This document shows positions 1,051-8,495 of a stretch of DNA of 21,689 nt, in pieces (within the stretch, counting starts at the first letter, position 1; each line of letters begins with the position of its first letter). The notes beneath the pieces are model-generated. The model was not told the origin of the DNA and did not search any database. It saw only the letters and a list, made by a program, of their open reading frames with translations. The stretch is from a virus (lineage: Duplodnaviria; Heunggongvirae; Uroviricota; Caudoviricetes), in the IMG/VR virus record IMGVR_UViG_2541047926_000011. One strand, given 5' to 3'. Both the position numbers and the translations under genes were made by a program.

Positions 1051-1350
1051 TTAACCAGTTTGTTTCTCGGAGAGGTCTGATTCCGTTGATTCTGGCCCAA
1101 TGTGTGCGAGAGCCGGTGCGATTTGACCAGCTTGCGGAGCGGTCTTATCAGTCATTAGCCAAAGCGTGTACTTTTCAAATAGTGGGTGCTGGGTGAGTTT
1201 CATCAGTGTTGTCCAGCCAGGTTCGTTATATCCCCCCTCTAATTTTTTCAAGGTGCTAATTGGTATCTCCATGATTTTGCAAAATTGATTCTGGCTGAGT
1301 CCTTCAGCCGTTCGAATCGCCTTTATTTTTTCAGATACGATCATTGACAT
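1051..1350 (-). CDS. C: Immunity repressor, HTH (P2 C-like); start placed at the ATG giving 99 aa, the ORF extends to a GTG at 1377
   Basis: HTH-like stretch SEKIKAIRTAEGLSQNQFCKIMEIPISTLKKL; C-terminal FEKYTLWLMT...GQIAPALAH matches my recollection of P2 C; the 99-aa length equals P2 C. Confidence 0.75.
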   Translation of the reverse strand: MSMIVSEKIKAIRTAEGLSQNQFCKIMEIPISTLKKLEGGYNEPGWTTLMKLTQHPLFEKYTLWLMTDKTAPQAGQIAPALAHIGPESTESDLSEKQTG

Positions 1351-1377
1351 GGTTCCGACTTGTGATCTAGCATTCAC

Positions 1378-1407
1378 TCAACTGGTTCATAACTCGGAAC
1401 CAGTTGA
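1378..1407. promoter_or_regulatory. Perfect 11-bp inverted repeat (TCAACTGGTTC / GAACCAGTTGA) with an 8-bp spacer, just upstream of the repressor start; candidate operator
   Basis: Read directly from the sequence; a GATC lies at 1364-1367 between the repeat and the C start codon. Confidence 0.4.
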
Positions 1408-1910
1408 ACCAGACTCATAACCGCCAATTTAGGCAGTTATAAGCCGAAATAAGCGCCTAGCGCCAATGCGGAGATTAGCACAAATGGTTATGAAACATGA
1501 GGGAGCGAAAGAATCGGGCGGAGCCTTACATATGAGATTCCGCCAGATTAAGGGGAGTCAAAAACGTGGCTTTCTGCGGGTTATTGCAGAACGTTTGTCA
1601 CTGGTGTTCCTTCGAGTTGCTCGTCCAGAAATTTGTGTGTCCTCGCTAAGTTCAATGCAAGTGATTGTGTTACCCCTGCTGAAAACTGCAATCGCAGAGG
1701 AATATCACCAGCAGGGTGCGGAAGCACTACATCGAGTTGTAATTCGCCTGTCTTGGCGTCGAATTTAAGACCTTTAAGGTCAGTAATCGGTAGAGGAAAA
1801 ACGCCCTTAAATTCGTCCATTTTTTTGCCCTATTAGTGTGAGAGCTACAAGGGTAACACGCGCCGGGGCGTGAGAAAAAATCCCGGCAACAATCAATTAG
1901 AGGTAATTCT

Positions 1911-2192
1911 ATGACAGACAAAGAGTTAGAGGGGTTCATTGAAGTGCGTCACGCTGTTGACGCGGTTCCATACCCAAAATTTGCCGAATTGATCGGTAAG
2001 AAGCCCGCCACGGTTAAGAGCATGATTGAAGACGGTAAGTTGCCGATCATCCCGTGGAAGAACCCGGAAAGCCTGGGCGCCCGCGCTGAGAACTGGATCT
2101 ATATTCCTGAGTTCAACCGCGCAATGCGTGACGCCTATTACAACCGTCCGAGAGAACAGCGCGACGCGTGGTTGTTGTGGATCGGTCTTTGA
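1911..2192 (+). CDS. cox: Cox-like excisionase / switch regulator
   Basis: 93 aa (P2 Cox is 91); C-terminal ...RDAWLLWIGL resembles the P2 Cox C-terminus; GAGGT Shine-Dalgarno upstream of the ATG; divergent from C. Confidence 0.75.
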   Translation: MTDKELEGFIEVRHAVDAVPYPKFAELIGKKPATVKSMIEDGKLPIIPWKNPESLGARAENWIYIPEFNRAMRDAYYNRPREQRDAWLLWIGL

Positions 2193-2202
2193 GGTTATCG
2201 CG

Positions 2203-2406
2203 ATGAGCCAGAAAACAGCCAACCACGAAAACCGGGTGCGTGAATGTAACAATATTCTGGACACCCATTTAAAAAATATGCAAACGGGATTCATGATTCG
2301 CACCAATAGCGGCGAGTTTATTATCAGGGATAAAAAGCTGATTAAGAAAATAACCAAAGACGTGGCGCGCCATGTTGATGGTGAATTGCTTAAATTGGGA
2401 ATGTGA
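2203..2406 (+). CDS. Hypothetical early protein, 67 aa
   Basis: ATG at 2203 with GAGG 8 nt upstream, just after the cox stop; the longer ORF from 2026 overlaps cox and is rejected. Confidence 0.5.
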   Translation: MSQKTANHENRVRECNNILDTHLKNMQTGFMIRTNSGEFIIRDKKLIKKITKDVARHVDGELLKLGM

Positions 2407-2416
2407 GGGGGCTTTT

Positions 2417-2623
2417 GTGGCTGTGCAATTAATACAGTTAAGTCGTCACTCATATTTATATCGTGGCTTCACGATTCAAAAGTGCCCGCGTAATCCATTT
2501 ACGTTTAAGCACTCTTATCGTATTTCCAGTAATGGCGATTATTACGGGCGTGACTTTGCTTTAGCGGAAGCCATGCGCACGGTTGATCAGATGTATAAGC
2601 AAGGGGGCAGTAATGCACGATGA
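2417..2623 (+). CDS. Hypothetical early protein, about 68 aa, start uncertain (GTG)
   Basis: GAGGGGG just upstream of an in-frame GTG at 2417; its stop overlaps the next ORF start, suggesting translational coupling. Confidence 0.4.
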   Translation: MAVQLIQLSRHSYLYRGFTIQKCPRNPFTFKHSYRISSNGDYYGRDFALAEAMRTVDQMYKQGGSNAR

Positions 2624-2843
2624 AGGCCCATCACTGGCAAGCCTGCTTAAGCACGGGTGCCAGGTTACACACTTCAAAAACTCACGCGGCTGGCTGGAAA
2701 CACCAGACGGGAAATTCTTTAAACCTGAGCCTGGCAAGGTTCAATTTATTAAGGGAATGAGTAAGCCCTTTGTTTATATGAAGAAGATAAACAAAGGATT
2801 ACTTTTTAACTTTGTTAATTCTTTGAGAAATTTAATCGGCTAA
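2613..2843 (+). CDS. Hypothetical early protein, 76 aa
   Basis: ATG at 2613 preceded by AAGGGGG; overlaps the stop of the upstream ORF. Confidence 0.45.
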   Translation: MHDEGPSLASLLKHGCQVTHFKNSRGWLETPDGKFFKPEPGKVQFIKGMSKPFVYMKKINKGLLFNFVNSLRNLIG

Positions 2844-2885
2844 CAACGCCAGTTAAATAGTAATTAAAAACAGTCTTCACTGTCG

Positions 2886-2901
2886 TCACTTAATTAAGTG
2901 A
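2886..2901. promoter_or_regulatory. Perfect 16-bp palindrome TCACTTAATTAAGTGA in an AT-rich gap about 35 bp upstream of the TerB-like gene; candidate operator or promoter element
   Basis: Read directly from the sequence; the surrounding stretch 2844-2936 is AT-rich and non-coding. Confidence 0.4.
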
Positions 2902-2936
2902 TGGCGCTTTCACTCATCCTAAAAAGGATAAATAGC

Positions 2937-3371
2937 ATGTTTAATAAACTGTTTGGAAAAAAAGTAGCAGCGGCAAAAGTTGAACTTAAGAAAGTAGAAA
3001 ATCGCGATCTGATGGAAGCTATTGTCGGCGGTTGCCTTTTGGTATCTGCCGCCGATGGCGAGATCGAAAAAGAAGAAACCAGCAAGCTGGATCAGCTTAT
3101 CCGCTCTAACCCGCGCCTTGCGCATTTCGGCAATGAGATCACATCCACCATCAACCGCTATACGGAACAGCTTGAAGCTGGCTTCCGCGTTGGCCGCATG
3201 AACATTTTGCGCGAAATCGACGACATCAAAAACGATCCGAAAGAAGCCGAAGAAGTCTTCGTCAACATGCTGACTATCGCCGAAGCGGACGGCCAGATCG
3301 AACCAGAAGAACAGAAGGTGCTGGAAGAGGTCGGGCGCCGTCTGGGGCTGCGTGTTGAGGATTATCTCTGA
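2937..3371 (+). CDS. TerB-like (tellurite-resistance TerB domain) protein, 144 aa
   Basis: Two acidic helical motifs, AADGEIEKEE and EADGQIEPEEQKVLEEV, as in TerB; AAGGA Shine-Dalgarno 8 nt before the ATG at 2937. Confidence 0.65.
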   Translation: MFNKLFGKKVAAAKVELKKVENRDLMEAIVGGCLLVSAADGEIEKEETSKLDQLIRSNPRLAHFGNEITSTINRYTEQLEAGFRVGRMNILREIDDIKNDPKEAEEVFVNMLTIAEADGQIEPEEQKVLEEVGRRLGLRVEDYL

Positions 3372-3553
3372 TGCTGCGCGTGCTGGATTCACTACGTCCG
3401 GCGCTGGCCCTGCTGTTGGCCTTCATGGTCGTAGCAGTGGATTTCACCAGCTACCTGCTTTCGGTGATTGGCGACGCCTTCTTCGTTGGCGCTCTTCTTC
3501 TCCTTGTCTGGCCTGCCATCAAGTCAGCTAACCAATCAGCGGATCACCAGTAA
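3371..3553 (+). CDS. Small hydrophobic (predicted membrane) protein, 60 aa, coupled to the TerB-like gene
   Basis: ATG overlaps the TerB-like stop (ATGA); translation has long hydrophobic stretches (ALALLLAFMVVAVDF..., FFVGALLLLVWPAI). Confidence 0.55.
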   Translation: MLRVLDSLRPALALLLAFMVVAVDFTSYLLSVIGDAFFVGALLLLVWPAIKSANQSADHQ

Positions 3554-3595
3554 CAGATTACCGGGGAAACCCGGCAATTTCTGAGGCTTCGAATC

Positions 3596-3808
3596 ATGAC
3601 TAAACGCGATCAATATAACTTCATCCTGCACGTTCTCTTACCTGCTGTTGAGCGTGAAGGGCTGACGATTAAAACCCGCCGCGATGGTGAGTTAACCCTT
3701 TCTTCTGACGATCCCTCTGTTTCCTGCTTTATCGACGACATGCGCCAGCGCCTTACCACGGCGTTGCTGCGTCCGGCTGTTCCATCTTCCCCTTACGGAG
3801 TCCTGTAA
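3596..3808 (+). CDS. Hypothetical protein, 70 aa
   Basis: ORF with GAGG upstream; its stop lies 1 nt before the Dam start. Confidence 0.5.
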   Translation: MTKRDQYNFILHVLLPAVEREGLTIKTRRDGELTLSSDDPSVSCFIDDMRQRLTTALLRPAVPSSPYGVL

Positions 3809-3809
3809 A

Positions 3810-4781
3810 ATGATCCGCCCGTTCATCAAATGGGCAGGGGGTAAAACCCGTGTCCTCCCTGACCTGCTGCCGCATCTTCCTAAAGCCGACTGCCTGATCG
3901 AACCGTTCGTAGGCGGAGCATCGGTATTTCTGGCGACTGAATACCGCCGCTATGTGCTGGCTGATATCAACCCGGACCTTATTAACCTGTATCGGGAAGT
4001 CACTCGTTACCCGGACTTAGTGATCGATGCGGCCCGCGAACTGTTCAACAGTAAGAACAGCCCGCAGGGATACAACGAAGTCCGCGCCGCGTTCAATAAG
4101 CAGGTGGGTACGGTAAAAAGCGGTGGGTTGCGTTATGGCGCTGAAATGGCGTGCATTATGCGCGCTGCTCAATTCCTGTATCTGAATCGCCACGGCTATA
4201 ACGGCTTATGCCGATACAGCTGGAAGACCGGCTTTAACGTGCCGTTTGGCAAGTATAAGAGCGTCTACTTTCCTGAAAATGAAATATGCCTGTTTGCCGA
4301 AAAGGCCAACGATACAAAGGCAATATTTCTTTGCGCGCCGTTCCAGCGTTCTCTACAGGTCGTCACGGGTGGCGATGTTCTCGTTTACTGCGATCCGCCT
4401 TACCTGCCTGAAAGCAAAACAGCCGATTTTACCCAATACCACACCGAACCATTCACGGAAGACAACCACCGCCAGTTAGTCCAGGCACTGCTGGAAGTTA
4501 ACCGTAAGCATGGCGTGAAGGTCGTCATTTCCAACAGCGACACCGAAGCCACCCGCGCGATTTATCAGCCCTTCAAGATGCACGAAATCAGCGTGCAACG
4601 TTCCGTCAGCACCAACAAAGACAACCGGCAGAAGGCCAAAGAAGTGATCGGCGTGCTGCCTGTCTGCGACTGCTGCGGGCGTTATGGCGGCGGTTGCCCT
4701 GATTGTGGCGCCGTGATGGGTGATGCGACTTACAACGCGATGGTTGCGGCGGGCGAGTTTGACGATCAGGAGGCTTTTTAA
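3810..4781 (+). CDS. dam: DNA adenine methyltransferase (Dam family, N6-adenine, probably GATC-specific) with a Cys-rich C-terminal extension
   Basis: N-terminal FIKWAGGK motif, catalytic DPPY motif, and collinear resemblance to E. coli Dam (LYLNRHGYNGLCRY); about 45 extra C-terminal residues containing CDCC...CPDC. Confidence 0.9.
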   Translation: MIRPFIKWAGGKTRVLPDLLPHLPKADCLIEPFVGGASVFLATEYRRYVLADINPDLINLYREVTRYPDLVIDAARELFNSKNSPQGYNEVRAAFNKQVGTVKSGGLRYGAEMACIMRAAQFLYLNRHGYNGLCRYSWKTGFNVPFGKYKSVYFPENEICLFAEKANDTKAIFLCAPFQRSLQVVTGGDVLVYCDPPYLPESKTADFTQYHTEPFTEDNHRQLVQALLEVNRKHGVKVVISNSDTEATRAIYQPFKMHEISVQRSVSTNKDNRQKAKEVIGVLPVCDCCGRYGGGCPDCGAVMGDATYNAMVAAGEFDDQEAF

Positions 4782-4960
4782 TGAATCTTATAGACGCCTG
4801 GATCGTTGAAATCATAAGCGTGAGTTGCGGCGAGATTGTGCCGTATTGGTTGGTTGAGGCGAAAGTAACAGCTTATGGAAGGGAGTCAATAACCACAATT
4901 CTGAAGAAATCAGAAGAGGAAGCCAAAGCCGTTAAAGTAGGGGATGTAGTTCAAATATGA
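4781..4960 (+). CDS. Hypothetical small protein, 59 aa, absent from the ORF track (below its length cutoff)
   Basis: ATG overlaps the dam stop (TAATG) with CAGGAGG 7 nt upstream; stop TGA overlaps the A start (ATGA); translation MNLIDAWIVEIISVSCGEIVPYWLVEAKVTAYGRESITTILKKSEEEAKAVKVGDVVQI. Confidence 0.45.
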   Translation: MNLIDAWIVEIISVSCGEIVPYWLVEAKVTAYGRESITTILKKSEEEAKAVKVGDVVQI

Positions 4961-7332
4961 CCACGGAAACCCGTGGCCGTCGCGCCCCTTCTCCACCTCC
5001 ACCGTATCCGGGTAGCACTGACAATGCTATCCCTTACGCTTATGGGGGAAACAAACCATACCAGCCTATTGGCGTTGATGTAGCGCCGGGGCTGGATGGT
5101 TTCGACTATCTCACGCCGGACGGCACGCGTAAGCATATTGCGTTCAGTGAACTGGTAGCGGAAGACGAAAAGCCGGAGCGCAGCAAGCTGCTGCGTCGCC
5201 GTCTGGCTTCACTTCCGCAGTATATCCGCCGCCACTTTGCCGCGAAGCTGGATGCACTGGACGCGAAAGACCGCAAAGCGGCAGATCACTGGCTGGTTAA
5301 TACCTTTGAGCGCCACGTATTAACGCGAATTGATAGTGTGAACAGTGTTTACCAGCCTGACACTGTGATGCCCGGCATTCTGCTGCCAATCCGCGATCAG
5401 CTGTTCCGTATGCTCTGGGCAGGGAAGAAAGAGTTAAAAAGACTGGCTTATACGCTTGCCGATATCTTTACGAGCGAGTTTATACGCGAGTCCGATCACC
5501 AATTGGCACGCACCGGAGATCCTGAGTTCGCGGCGCTTTCTGGCTATGGCCGTATTGCGTCGCTGGCGGTGCATCTGAAAACTCCGATCCCCGGCTGGAC
5601 GGCGTATTGCAATGAAGAACTGGAAGCGGAGGACGCGTTACGCGCGGTTCTTCGCCTTGAGTCACCGCAGTGGTGGTTAAACCGCCTGCGCCGTATCCAT
5701 GCCCGGTGGCGTGAGCATTTGATGATCGCTGCGGGATACGTCCAGAAAAAATCTTTCCCATACAGTAGCGCCCCGTGCCTTACGGAATGGTTGGCCCAAA
5801 AAAAGGCTAACCGTGAATACCTTAAGGCTATGGAACTGGAAGACCAGGACACGGGCGAACGCATTTCACTGATCGATAAAGTCGCCGGTAGTGTTGCCAA
5901 TCCGGCCAACCGTCGCCGCGAACTCATGACGAGAATGCGCGGATTTGAAGATCTGGCGAAGCTGGAAGGGCTGGCCGGTGACTTCTACACGCTGACAGCA
6001 CCTTCCCGTTACCACTCCATGCAGCATAACGGGCGCCGCAATAATAAATACTGTGGCGCATCGCCGCGCGAGACGCAGCAATATCTTTGCAAAGTCTGGG
6101 CGAGAACCCGCGCAGCGTGGAAGAGAAAAGGGATCCGCGTCTTTGGTTTTCGCGTGGTCGAACCGCACCACGATGCAACGCCACACTGGCATTTACTTCT
6201 TTTTATGCGCCCGGAATGCGTCGAGCAGGCGCGCGAAATCTTCCGTAAATATGCCCTGAAAGAAGACGGCAACGAACCGGGAGCGCAGGAAAACCGCTTT
6301 CAGGTTGTGCCGATCGATGATGCCCACGGCAGCGCAACCGGCTACATAGCGAAATACATTTCGAAGAATATCGACGGCTTCGCGCTGGATGGTGAGAAGG
6401 ACGACGAAACCGGGGAAGACCTGAAAGAAATGTCACTCCGCGTTAGCGCGTGGGCATCGCGCTGGGCTATTCGTCAGTTTCAGCAGATCGGCGGTGCACC
6501 GGTCACGGTATATCGCGAACTTCGCCGCCTGGGCGATCGCGAACTGGTGTTACACCCTGAACTGGAAACCGCCCGGCAGGCCGCTAACGGTGGCGAATGG
6601 GATAACTACGTATTAGCCCAGGGTGGCCCGTTGGTTGAGCGCGATAAGCTGCGCATCCGTCTGAATTATGAAACCACTGAAAACGGCAACGCCTACGGCG
6701 ATAACGTCCAGCGAATCACCGGTATCTATTGCCCGATTACGGGCAATGACTCTTTGATCTTCACCCGCACCACTAAATACAAAATCGTGCCGAAGCGCCA
6801 GAGCGCTGACGGTGTGGCCGTTGACGTTGGTTTTTCAGGCGGCAGCGCCGCCCCTCGGAGTTCTGTCAATAACTGTACGCGGGATCCCGCAACAGGTGCT
6901 GACGGTCTTGAACATGCCGATCACGAAGTGGGCGAGACGGTGAATTTTGATGCTCTTTCACGGCAAGAAAAGCGGGAACTGGCGCAGCGATTAAGTGACG
7001 ATGTACGCGCCAAGCGGAAAACGCGGCCACCGGAACGGGAACGGGAAGAGGAAGCAGGGCTATCAGTCAAAGAGCAGCAGATCAGTGAACTGCTGGAGCT
7101 ACGTGGGATTGATGCAAGCGCCGGAATGGTCAGATCGATGATGGCCGGTGCGTCAGTGGCGTGCGGTGATCTTGTTATGACCGTGCAGGACGGGCGGTTG
7201 GTATCGCGCAACCGCGCCGCATCCGGGCTGGATAAGCTGCCGTCACAGGTGATGGCAGCGAAGAAAAAGACAAGCGACCTTGTGAACAGGATGAAGGCAG
7301 CGTTTAAGGGCCATTTATTAAATGAGATATAA
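4957..7332 (+). CDS. A: Rolling-circle replication initiation endonuclease (P2 gpA-like)
   Basis: 791 aa; HUH-type motif TPHWHLLLF and active-site tyrosine motif GYIAKYISKN; positioned before the variable locus as in P2. Confidence 0.9.
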   Translation: MTTETRGRRAPSPPPPYPGSTDNAIPYAYGGNKPYQPIGVDVAPGLDGFDYLTPDGTRKHIAFSELVAEDEKPERSKLLRRRLASLPQYIRRHFAAKLDALDAKDRKAADHWLVNTFERHVLTRIDSVNSVYQPDTVMPGILLPIRDQLFRMLWAGKKELKRLAYTLADIFTSEFIRESDHQLARTGDPEFAALSGYGRIASLAVHLKTPIPGWTAYCNEELEAEDALRAVLRLESPQWWLNRLRRIHARWREHLMIAAGYVQKKSFPYSSAPCLTEWLAQKKANREYLKAMELEDQDTGERISLIDKVAGSVANPANRRRELMTRMRGFEDLAKLEGLAGDFYTLTAPSRYHSMQHNGRRNNKYCGASPRETQQYLCKVWARTRAAWKRKGIRVFGFRVVEPHHDATPHWHLLLFMRPECVEQAREIFRKYALKEDGNEPGAQENRFQVVPIDDAHGSATGYIAKYISKNIDGFALDGEKDDETGEDLKEMSLRVSAWASRWAIRQFQQIGGAPVTVYRELRRLGDRELVLHPELETARQAANGGEWDNYVLAQGGPLVERDKLRIRLNYETTENGNAYGDNVQRITGIYCPITGNDSLIFTRTTKYKIVPKRQSADGVAVDVGFSGGSAAPRSSVNNCTRDPATGADGLEHADHEVGETVNFDALSRQEKRELAQRLSDDVRAKRKTRPPEREREEEAGLSVKEQQISELLELRGIDASAGMVRSMMAGASVACGDLVMTVQDGRLVSRNRAASGLDKLPSQVMAAKKKTSDLVNRMKAAFKGHLLNEI

Positions 7333-7382: not shown

Positions 7383-8495
7383 TTATCTTCTCAAACGCTT
7401 CTGTCGTTTAGCTTCTAACTGAGCAGAAAATTTTCTTCCCGCTTTGAACTGTTCAGATGAAAGAGGTTTACTGTTAAGTTGATATGTACGTGCCCTTACA
7501 ATCAACTGAGACATGGAAGGAGATATCACGAAATCATTGAGATGTTTTTTTAGTCGTTCTAGAGCTTTTTTTCCTTCATCAGTAATCAAGTCTCTTTGCA
7601 GCATCCACAAAAAAACATCTACAGCTTGCAGCGCTGGATGACTTTCTGAACTTCGAAGATCGAATTTACCTAAATCGAATTGAGCCTCCTCAAAAAGAAT
7701 TGGGCCCCCCAAATCGTCCTCTACATGATCGATTTTATGAAAAATGCGGTGATATTCTCTCATCGTCCCGCGAAACTCGTCGCTTCTGTCATGGATCAAT
7801 TCTTTTACGGAAGAGGAATGCTTTTTACAGAAAGAATGTGTAGCCCCCATCAGACTAGAAAAAGCAACCATATTAGGCGTTTGGCCTTTGTAGGCGCTTT
7901 TCCCATGGGTACAAATTAAGGTGAATTCGTCAGGGTGGCTGATCGCGTAAGTTAAACCATCAGTCATAACTTCTTTCATTCGCGGATCTAGTATGCGGTC
8001 AATTCTTGAAAGTGCAATTTCCGCAACTTGAAGCATTTTTGGCATGTCGTCGCTCAGGAAACCATCCCAAAAAGCCTTGTTATCTTCATCGGACAAGATA
8101 TCTGCCATACCTAAGCACATAGCATGTCTAAATAATTCGGTGTTGTACCACAAGACCGGGACGCCAGGATTATCAGCACTATCAAAAAACAGATCAACAA
8201 ACTTGGTTGGTGCGAGATAAGGTTTGTGAATAACGCAGAGTGAAAATTCCCAAGAGGTATTTTTAAGTGCATCAAGAAGATCTGAGCAAATTACTGAAAC
8301 AACATGCTCTTGGTGTTCATTTGAGTGAAGACGCGGAACGCCTAAAGCCTTGCAGTGCCGCTGGACAACTTCGTTAATGATAGGATCAACGTCACCATGA
8401 GAGATTATCGCCCCCTGAAAGTATGTCGGTGATCTCTCGTCAAAAATATTGCGACCTGAATGTCCAGATTCATCAGCATAAACATAAACGTCCAT
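7383..8495 (-). CDS. Hypothetical 370-aa protein of unknown function; cargo at the A-cos variable locus; N-terminal YADESG motif (possibly DUF3800-like)
   Basis: Single uninterrupted ORF with AAGGAA Shine-Dalgarno before the ATG; visibly lower G+C than its flanks; convergent with A; basic C-terminal tail (KRQKRLRR). Confidence 0.75.
   Translation of the reverse strand: MDVYVYADESGHSGRNIFDERSPTYFQGAIISHGDVDPIINEVVQRHCKALGVPRLHSNEHQEHVVSVICSDLLDALKNTSWEFSLCVIHKPYLAPTKFVDLFFDSADNPGVPVLWYNTELFRHAMCLGMADILSDEDNKAFWDGFLSDDMPKMLQVAEIALSRIDRILDPRMKEVMTDGLTYAISHPDEFTLICTHGKSAYKGQTPNMVAFSSLMGATHSFCKKHSSSVKELIHDRSDEFRGTMREYHRIFHKIDHVEDDLGGPILFEEAQFDLGKFDLRSSESHPALQAVDVFLWMLQRDLITDEGKKALERLKKHLNDFVISPSMSQLIVRARTYQLNSKPLSSEQFKAGRKFSAQLEAKRQKRLRR

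Follow-up and report, generated by a model that had tools for sequence, protein, structure and literature searches.

A TerB-family gene and its small hydrophobic partner in the early operon of a P2-like Escherichia coli prophage, very probably the tciA-tciB cargo pair of P1-type phages

TerB domains have been described as membrane-associated or amphitropic. They are found in the defence systems Bunzi, Shango and Dionysus, whose authors suggest a role in "membrane surveillance", and the standalone TerB of jumbo phages may, according to one proposal, counter superinfecting phages. The gene set of the minimal ter operon is terBCDE. In P1 a tciA-B-C group is annotated as part of the ban operon, 3' of the C1-controlled Pban/Oban (AF234172), and the operon has been lost from roughly half of one P1 subgroup. 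The present analysis concerns a 21,689-nucleotide stretch of viral DNA (IMG/VR record IMGVR_UViG_2541047926_000011, hereafter the window), which is a P2/186-like (Novemvirus-like) E. coli prophage, and within it positions 2844-3595, where a gene for a TerB-family protein and an overlapping gene for a small hydrophobic protein are placed between fil and orf70/dam in the early lytic operon. The locus is almost certainly the tciA-tciB pair of P1-type phages, present as accessory cargo, an identity that an earlier note on this DNA had missed.

The window contains the two genes that define the tciA-tciB pair (PHROG 632 and 1470), that is, a TerB-type gene and then a start-overlapping hydrophobic gene whose product carries VDF(T/S)...D...WP, and the two proteins, their order and their stop/start overlap are the same as in P1-type phages. 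Nucleotide matches from the ribosome-binding site into the second gene were obtained with P7 (terB/upf69.4), the P1 isolate OP279344 (tciA/tciB) and D6; nucleotide identity to the P7 and P1-isolate pairs is 79%, and the window TerB is 91% identical in amino acid sequence to both P7 TerB and OP279344 TciA. The motifs VDFTS...(S/G)D...VWP are common to the window partner and P1-type TciB, and the window partner is only ∼35-40% identical to P1 TciB. Both the P1-type and the window copies lie in a repressor-controlled lytic operon, which is the ban operon in P1 and the P2-like early operon in the window. The window also differs from P1 in having neither a tciC homologue nor flanking tRNA genes, a hairpin and orf70 following the pair instead, and TciA in the reference P1 record (AF234172) represents another allele, which shares only 32.5% identity with the window TerB. 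P1-type phages thus have two very different tciA alleles (AF234172 as against P7 and OP279344), whereas the tciB genes of AF234172 and OP279344 are much more alike than their tciA alleles. The pair is already catalogued in PHROGs, Pfam, RefSeq and the P1 literature, and its occurrence in P2-like early operons is already annotated, RefSeq giving both genes in an E. coli prophage that is 99.9% identical.

Pfam, similarity to a solved structure and the fold all place the product of the first gene firmly in the TerB family, in line with the earlier note, which called it TerB-like and listed two acidic motifs of the ADGxIExEE type. A hidden Markov model search with Pfam TerB (PF05099) gives 54.0 bits against a gathering cut-off of 24.4, aligning residues 27-143 to profile positions 2-113 of 118. 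The PHROGs family phrog_632, labelled "tellurite resistance", is matched with E=5e-62, and the solved Klebsiella TerB (KP-TerB, PDB 2JXU) with E=1e-8 over residues 17-138. The AlphaFold2 model, computed with 45 homologues, has a predicted local distance difference test score (pLDDT) of 92.7 and six helices; the modelled fold is the all-helical TerB fold and is matched by 2ou3 and 2h5n. Both acidic motifs are present, as SAADGEIEKEE and AEADGQIEPEE, a duplicated A-D-G-x-I-x-x-x-E in which A39, G41, E47, A115, G119 and E125 are invariant among the 45 homologues and D40, I43, D118 and I121 are conserved in at least 90% of them. The protein has a net charge of -8, whereas residues 1-20 carry +5, the N-terminal helix being rich in lysine. 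NCBIfam gives a weak similarity to DjlA (24 bits over residues 36-142), far below the cut-off of 162 bits. In DjlA, as would be the case in the pair, a TerB-like domain is tethered to the inner membrane, but DjlA combines a transmembrane anchor with a J domain, whereas the window TerB has no J domain and its anchor would be a separate polypeptide.

The family name and the database annotation both suggest that the pair could make the lysogen truly resistant to tellurite or metals, and the conserved acidic motifs could bind metal ions. KP-TerB of the terZABCDEF operon has, like the window protein, the same domain at full length with the duplicated acidic motif, at an identity of only ∼25-30% as judged by eye on the alignment. 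However, no counterpart of TerC, TerD, TerE or TerZ is present among the scanned ORFs (open reading frames) of the window, in which the neighbours are fil, orf70 and dam, and the partner of the window TerB is a protein of 60 residues where the ter operon has the multi-pass TerC. Resistance is described (PMC8123226) as needing a multi-gene "minimal ter operon". The position of the pair in a lytic operon further argues against a lysogenic conversion trait, and of all the explanations considered resistance is the least likely. "Tellurite resistance" on such prophage genes should be read as a homology label and not as a phenotype.

The second gene encodes the overlapping hydrophobic protein of 60 residues noticed earlier, and this protein belongs to DUF3927 (PF13064; 30.8 bits against a gathering cut-off of 25, E=3e-7, residues 12-54) and to the "TciB-like" family phrog_1470 of PHROGs (E=2e-19). 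Its ATG shares one base with the stop codon of the TerB gene (TGATG), and this translational coupling implies that the two proteins are made together. The sequence has one continuous hydrophobic stretch of ∼41 residues with two hydropathy maxima, the Kyte-Doolittle mean over 19 residues being 1.3-2.3 from residue 4 to about residue 48, and AlphaFold2 predicts a single long continuous helix (pLDDT 89.6). Residues V23, D24, F25, T26, S27, Y28, L29, L30, S31, D35 and W47 are invariant in 26 homologues, and both invariant aspartates, Asp24 and Asp35, fall within the hydrophobic stretch. A tblastn search of the phage collection with the 60-residue protein gave no matches, almost certainly an effect of the low-complexity filter, since annotated TciB-like genes overlap the nucleotide matches. 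An apparent TerB-DUF3927 fusion (P0026) was considered as Rosetta-stone evidence and rejected because its sequence shows frameshift artefacts. In Dryocola sp. BD626 (locus L010, 5432-5671) the DUF3927 gene itself appears frameshifted after about 40 codons, and its conserved C-terminal half runs on in another frame, which may represent a pseudogene or a sequencing error.

Comparison with relatives shows that the pair is a separable two-gene insert, as had been proposed from the window. The closest phage in the collection, Enterobacter phage phiT5282H, has flanks that are 95.6% identical and lacks the pair, its gene order being fil, an 85-nt spacer, orf70 and dam. Homology by blastn to phiT5282H and to pair-less IMG/VR contigs stops at 2803-2808, inside the last codons of fil, and restarts at 3593, three bases before the ATG of orf70, so that the variable block comprises the last ∼12 fil codons, the spacer, the TerB and DUF3927 genes and the 3' hairpin (Table 1). 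Among the 65 fil-bearing IMG/VR loci long enough to be judged, the pair is present in 12 and absent from 53, although these loci often share 94-100% identity in cox, DUF4761, dam and gpA. The refuting case named in the earlier note, a universally conserved, essential P2 gene, is clearly contradicted by the absence of the pair from most relatives. In this context the pair was found in 17 of 5,426 complete E. coli genomes; the same backbone also occurs in other genomes without it or with different cargo nearby. G+C content and G+C at third codon positions do not mark the pair as foreign.

The same pair is found well beyond this lineage. TerB proteins 86-95% identical to that of the window are encoded in P2-like prophages of Pectobacterium, Serratia, Dryocola, Klebsiella and Buttiauxella, in which integrase and gpA are only 35-60% identical to those of the window (gpA taken by itself, 38-60%). 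Among 80 IMG/VR loci with TerB, 37 are P2-like and 43 are P1- or D6-like, and in all 80 the TerB gene is followed by a start-overlapping gene for a small hydrophobic partner of the DUF3927 type; a reverse look-up from two DUF3927 proteins showed TerB upstream in each of the three places displayed. The pair is ∼90% identical among P1-like phage-plasmids and P2-like prophages and more distant in lambdoid, N4-like and jumbo phages: in lambdoid phages it lies between Q and the holin gene (LMessi, JLK-2012 and Klebsiella phage 1 LV-2017), it is present in Pollock and FSL SP-058, which are virulent and N4-like, and an Erwinia jumbo phage has it with a more diverged partner. The pair is thus kept across very different phages, always in operons active in the lytic cycle.

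In two Pectobacterium P2-like prophages the pair is flanked by a direct repeat of 47 nt (98-100% identical; L007, 4910-4956 and 5601-5647; L008, 4910-4956 and 5600-5646), which consists of the 3' half of the 3' hairpin plus 40 nt. This repeat suggests movement of the cassette, by insertion or exchange, through recombination in structured intergenic spacers.

The location next to fil raises the possibility that the pair is a host-takeover factor that blocks or modulates cell division, in the "inhibition of cell division" sense of tci, alongside the Fil filamentation protein. The pair comes immediately after fil and accompanies a particular fil allele; the P1 ban operon that contains tciABC also has a dicF-like region according to the record annotation; and one report (PMC4633105) links the ter operon to filamentous growth in Yersinia. 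On the other hand, the tci genes were named by homology only, no fil is found nearby in the Pectobacterium, lambdoid, N4-like and P1 contexts, and neither protein shows similarity to a known division inhibitor in Pfam, NCBIfam or PDB. A role in division is accordingly improbable, and it shares with tellurite resistance the feature that only the name and the fil neighbourhood speak in favour.

The region upstream of the pair was described in the earlier note as an AT-rich non-coding break, following three coupled ORFs, that contains a perfect 16-bp palindrome taken to be the pair's own site. The break is present as described, the three ORFs being orf67, DUF4761 and fil, and the palindrome, TCACTTAATTAAGTGA at 2886-2901, has no counterpart of equal length elsewhere in the window. 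It was nevertheless rejected as a statistically unusual site, because a perfect palindrome of 16 bp or more turned up in 40% of windows simulated with a first-order Markov model, and the significance of both this element and the 3' hairpin comes only from comparison with relatives. The spacer aligns with the pair-less fil-orf70 spacers (85-96 nt) and is a diverged homologue of them. In 50 of 51 distinct spacers a hairpin occurs ∼30-45 nt past the fil stop (-6 to -12.6 kcal/mol), whether TerB or orf70 comes next, and in the window the palindrome forms the core of this hairpin, whose RNA fold has -12.8 kcal/mol and z = -3.6. The pair therefore does not have the palindrome as a site of its own.

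At least seven different stem sequences occur among the spacers; one pair-carrying relative, for example, has TCATTT...AAATGA where the window has TCACTT...AAGTGA. In an alignment of 23 spacer sequences 85% of cells are paired and seven of the ten pairs change on both sides, a result that none of 500 shuffles reached and that compares with 31-70% pairing in slid registers. Since pairing is conserved while sequence is free, the comparison points to selection for a structure formed within one strand, most simply in the RNA, and not to an operator recognised by its sequence; the element is a feature of the phage backbone and not of the pair. In this lineage the spacer version with the palindrome accompanies the pair because the exchanged block begins inside fil.

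Other parts of the spacer are also recurrent. The (C/A)ACTCAT box occupies alignment columns ∼42-48, with C46 and A47 invariant, and the small hairpin that covers the Shine-Dalgarno sequence of the TerB gene is seen in both the minimum-free-energy and the centroid folds; phiT5282H has an analogous Shine-Dalgarno-covering hairpin ahead of orf70. Such a structured spacer, with the first hairpin, the box and a second hairpin over the Shine-Dalgarno sequence of the following gene, is seen after fil in P2-like phages independently of what that gene is (L002-L005, L010, L019-L083). An Rfam scan of 1300-5000 assigned neither the fil-downstream hairpin nor the 3' hairpin to a family, the only match being a sub-threshold one to rli36.

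The short GC hairpin reported after the second gene (CCGGG-GAAA-CCCGG) is likewise present. On its own such a pattern is expected 0.2 times per window and occurs in 19 of 100 shuffles. In the compared P2-like relatives, however, a GC-rich hairpin lies 7-14 nt past the tciB-like stop in all but the Dryocola locus, in which tciB looks frameshifted. Each loop is a tetraloop (GAAA, GCAA or UUCG), the CCGG(G) core does not vary, 89.5% of aligned cells are paired and the three outer pairs covary, as against 30-54% pairing in slid controls. Most close relatives have an extended stem, GAUUGCCGGG-GAAA-CCCGGCAAUU (GATTGCCGGG-GAAA-CCCGGCAATT), of -17.5 kcal/mol at 3556-3579; the window has A3560 where these relatives have G, and its stem is shortened to the 5-bp core. 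The GC tetraloop hairpin of the P2-like copies is absent from the P1 copies, in which tciC follows, and in the P1 isolate a similar hairpin lies upstream of tciA. An intrinsic terminator at this position was considered and rejected, as there is no adequate T-run and the Pectobacterium homologues run into non-U sequence.

Table 1. Features of the window in and around the TerB-DUF3927 pair, in order of position
Feature	Coordinates	Strand	Remarks
int	1-981	minus	
Helix-turn-helix repressor	1051-1377	minus	
orf79	1581-1820	minus	
cox	1911-2192	+	
orf67	2203-2406	+	First of three coupled ORFs upstream of the pair
DUF4761	2417-2623	+	Second of the three coupled ORFs
fil	2613-2843	+	Third of the three coupled ORFs, directly 5' of the spacer
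Variable block relative to pair-less relatives	2804-3592	+	blastn and MAFFT alignment agree
AT-rich fil-TerB spacer	2844-2936	+	93 nt; 35% G+C against 53% for the window
Conserved hairpin downstream of fil	2882-2905	+	Palindrome 2886-2901 forms the core
Box CACTCAT	2911-2917	+	Follows the hairpin in nearly all spacer variants
Small hairpin ATCCT-AAAA-AGGAT	2916-2929	+	Predicted to sequester the Shine-Dalgarno sequence AGGA (2925-2928) of the TerB ORF
TerB-family protein, TciA homologue	2937-3371	+	144 aa
DUF3927 / TciB-like, predicted small membrane protein	3371-3553	+	60 aa; translationally coupled to TerB
GC hairpin with GAAA tetraloop	3561-3574	+	CCGGG-GAAA-CCCGG, just past the tciB-like stop
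orf70	3596-3808	+	
dam	3810-4781	+	Followed by orf59
gpA	4957-7332	+	Followed by the usual P2 head and lysis genes

These observations bear on the proposal of the earlier note that the pair is independently regulated. A scan of the spacer (2844-2936) for sigma-70-like promoters flagged none, neither hairpin is terminator-like in the scan, and the hairpin downstream of fil has no U-tract. The pair thus lacks a recognised promoter, terminator or unit-specific operator that would set it apart as an autonomous unit. Given this result, the translational coupling and the operon context, the simplest reading of the anatomy is that the pair is co-transcribed with the early lytic genes. The early transcript would start upstream of cox, read through the pair and continue to gene A, and the flanking hairpins would be conserved structured spacer elements of this phage transcript, not operators for the pair.

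Independent regulation is also the basis of a further explanation, in which the pair is a defence module expressed in the lysogen from its own operator, as a minimal relative of Shango, Bunzi or Dionysus. TerB domains do form part of validated defence systems, the pair is accessory cargo that moves horizontally, as is usual for defence genes of prophages, and its combination of TerB with a membrane protein recalls Dionysus, in which DinB is paired with a pore-forming protein. Indeed, in Dionysus (DinB), Shango (SngA) and Bunzi (BnzA), as in the window, a TerB domain is combined with membrane components. The MAEBL and four-transmembrane pore proteins of Dionysus are, however, absent from the window; Dionysus is newer than the PADLOC 2.0 library and was compared by architecture alone. 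Shango has helicase and ATPase partners, and no Shango or Bunzi partner genes were found in the window with PADLOC 2.0. That search gave no significant match for the TerB and DUF3927 proteins (only partial ones to PDC-S48, E=0.003, and PtuA, E=0.04) and no meaningful match for orf70, orf79, orf67 or a DUF3800 protein encoded downstream of gpA. The three systems reside in host defence islands, whereas the window pair is phage-encoded in a lytic operon.

Besides the missing promoter and terminator, the supposed operator is a backbone hairpin that also occurs in pair-less phages and whose stem changes are compensatory. The pair lies inside repressor-controlled lytic operons in both the P2-like and the P1 contexts, strictly virulent N4-like and jumbo carriers have no lysogen to protect, and the pair is not mentioned in the main text of two P2 hotspot surveys. 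Independent regulation is thus not borne out by the comparison, and a lysogen-expressed defence module is unlikely, though less so than a division inhibitor or a resistance determinant.

The best explanation overall is that the locus is a co-expressed cargo pair that would form a membrane-associated TerB-TciB complex during lytic growth, a proposal for which the case is evenly balanced. The 60-residue protein would sit in the inner membrane with its two invariant aspartates within the bilayer; its form there is probably that of a helical hairpin or of a small oligomer. It would recruit or anchor at the membrane the acidic TerB domain, which has six helices, the N-terminal one rich in lysine, and two ADGxIxxxE motifs. 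The complex would sense or tune inner-membrane state or ion balance while the phage grows lytically, and would in this way protect the phage's factory cell, for example from superinfecting phages, from pore damage of the colicin type or from membrane-targeting abortive infection. This mechanism, the anchoring of TerB included, is put forward much more tentatively than the identity of the pair and its status as cargo, and is rather less likely than not.

A number of points weigh against the membrane-associated complex and its proposed action. The interaction of TerB with TciB, the membrane topology and any ligand are all inferred, and the single helix predicted by AlphaFold2 for the 60-residue protein decides neither for a helical hairpin nor for an oligomer. 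Phage TerB genes without the partner exist (Vibrio D505, Pseudomonas AF and Cygsa01), and TerB can therefore work without the 60-residue protein. In P1, CRISPR interference scores tciA, tciB and tciC all as non-essential, the annotation of AF234172 assigns the tci name by homology only, and no functional study of the pair in any phage was found in the literature. Finally, the promoter scan covered sigma-70 consensus sites only, so that a weak or activator-dependent promoter for the pair is possible.

If the proposal of a membrane-associated TerB-TciB complex is extended to the other carriers, the pair could be a minimal membrane guard owned by the phage, in which a TerB sensor docked on a mini-membrane protein with two aspartates excludes competitors or neutralises abortive infection that collapses the membrane; this extension is speculative and rather doubtful. 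So, too, is its corollary that at least five unrelated lineages (P2-like, P1-like, lambdoid, N4-like and jumbo) switch on such a guard in lytic growth. Should it be correct, a widespread counter-defence or exclusion function has been hidden under the label "tellurite resistance" since 2004. TerB domains are now turning up in several validated anti-phage systems, and a two-protein version with no other components would offer about the simplest setting in which to find the ligand and the membrane partner of a TerB domain. For the window itself the outcome is modest: the pair is known cargo and the supposed operator is a backbone hairpin.

The surrounding prophage is closely related to sequenced ones. 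Positions 2600-3900 are 99.9% identical to a prophage of E. coli AR_0128, and from fil through gpA the window is 100% identical at the protein level to one IMG/VR contig (locus L019). Between the repressor gene and cox, orf79 encodes a protein of 79 residues that has no family match and is found in only a few otherwise near-identical relatives (e.g., L019, L028 and L043), which suggests that the immunity region contains another variable slot. The DUF3800 protein (370 aa, 7383-8495, minus strand) is encoded between gpA and the portal gene and has no match in PADLOC or NCBIfam; this is presumably also the position of tin/old in P2 and of the published P2 defence hotspot. A second cargo zone is seen in relatives in the orf70-gpA interval (L003, 3045-3626; L004, 3059-3307; L172, 4425-5039 and 6144-7711), where the cargo varies by relative and may be a 3'-5' exonuclease, a DUF7446, Rv2179c-like or ParE-like protein, a PAPS reductase or an extra cytosine methylase.

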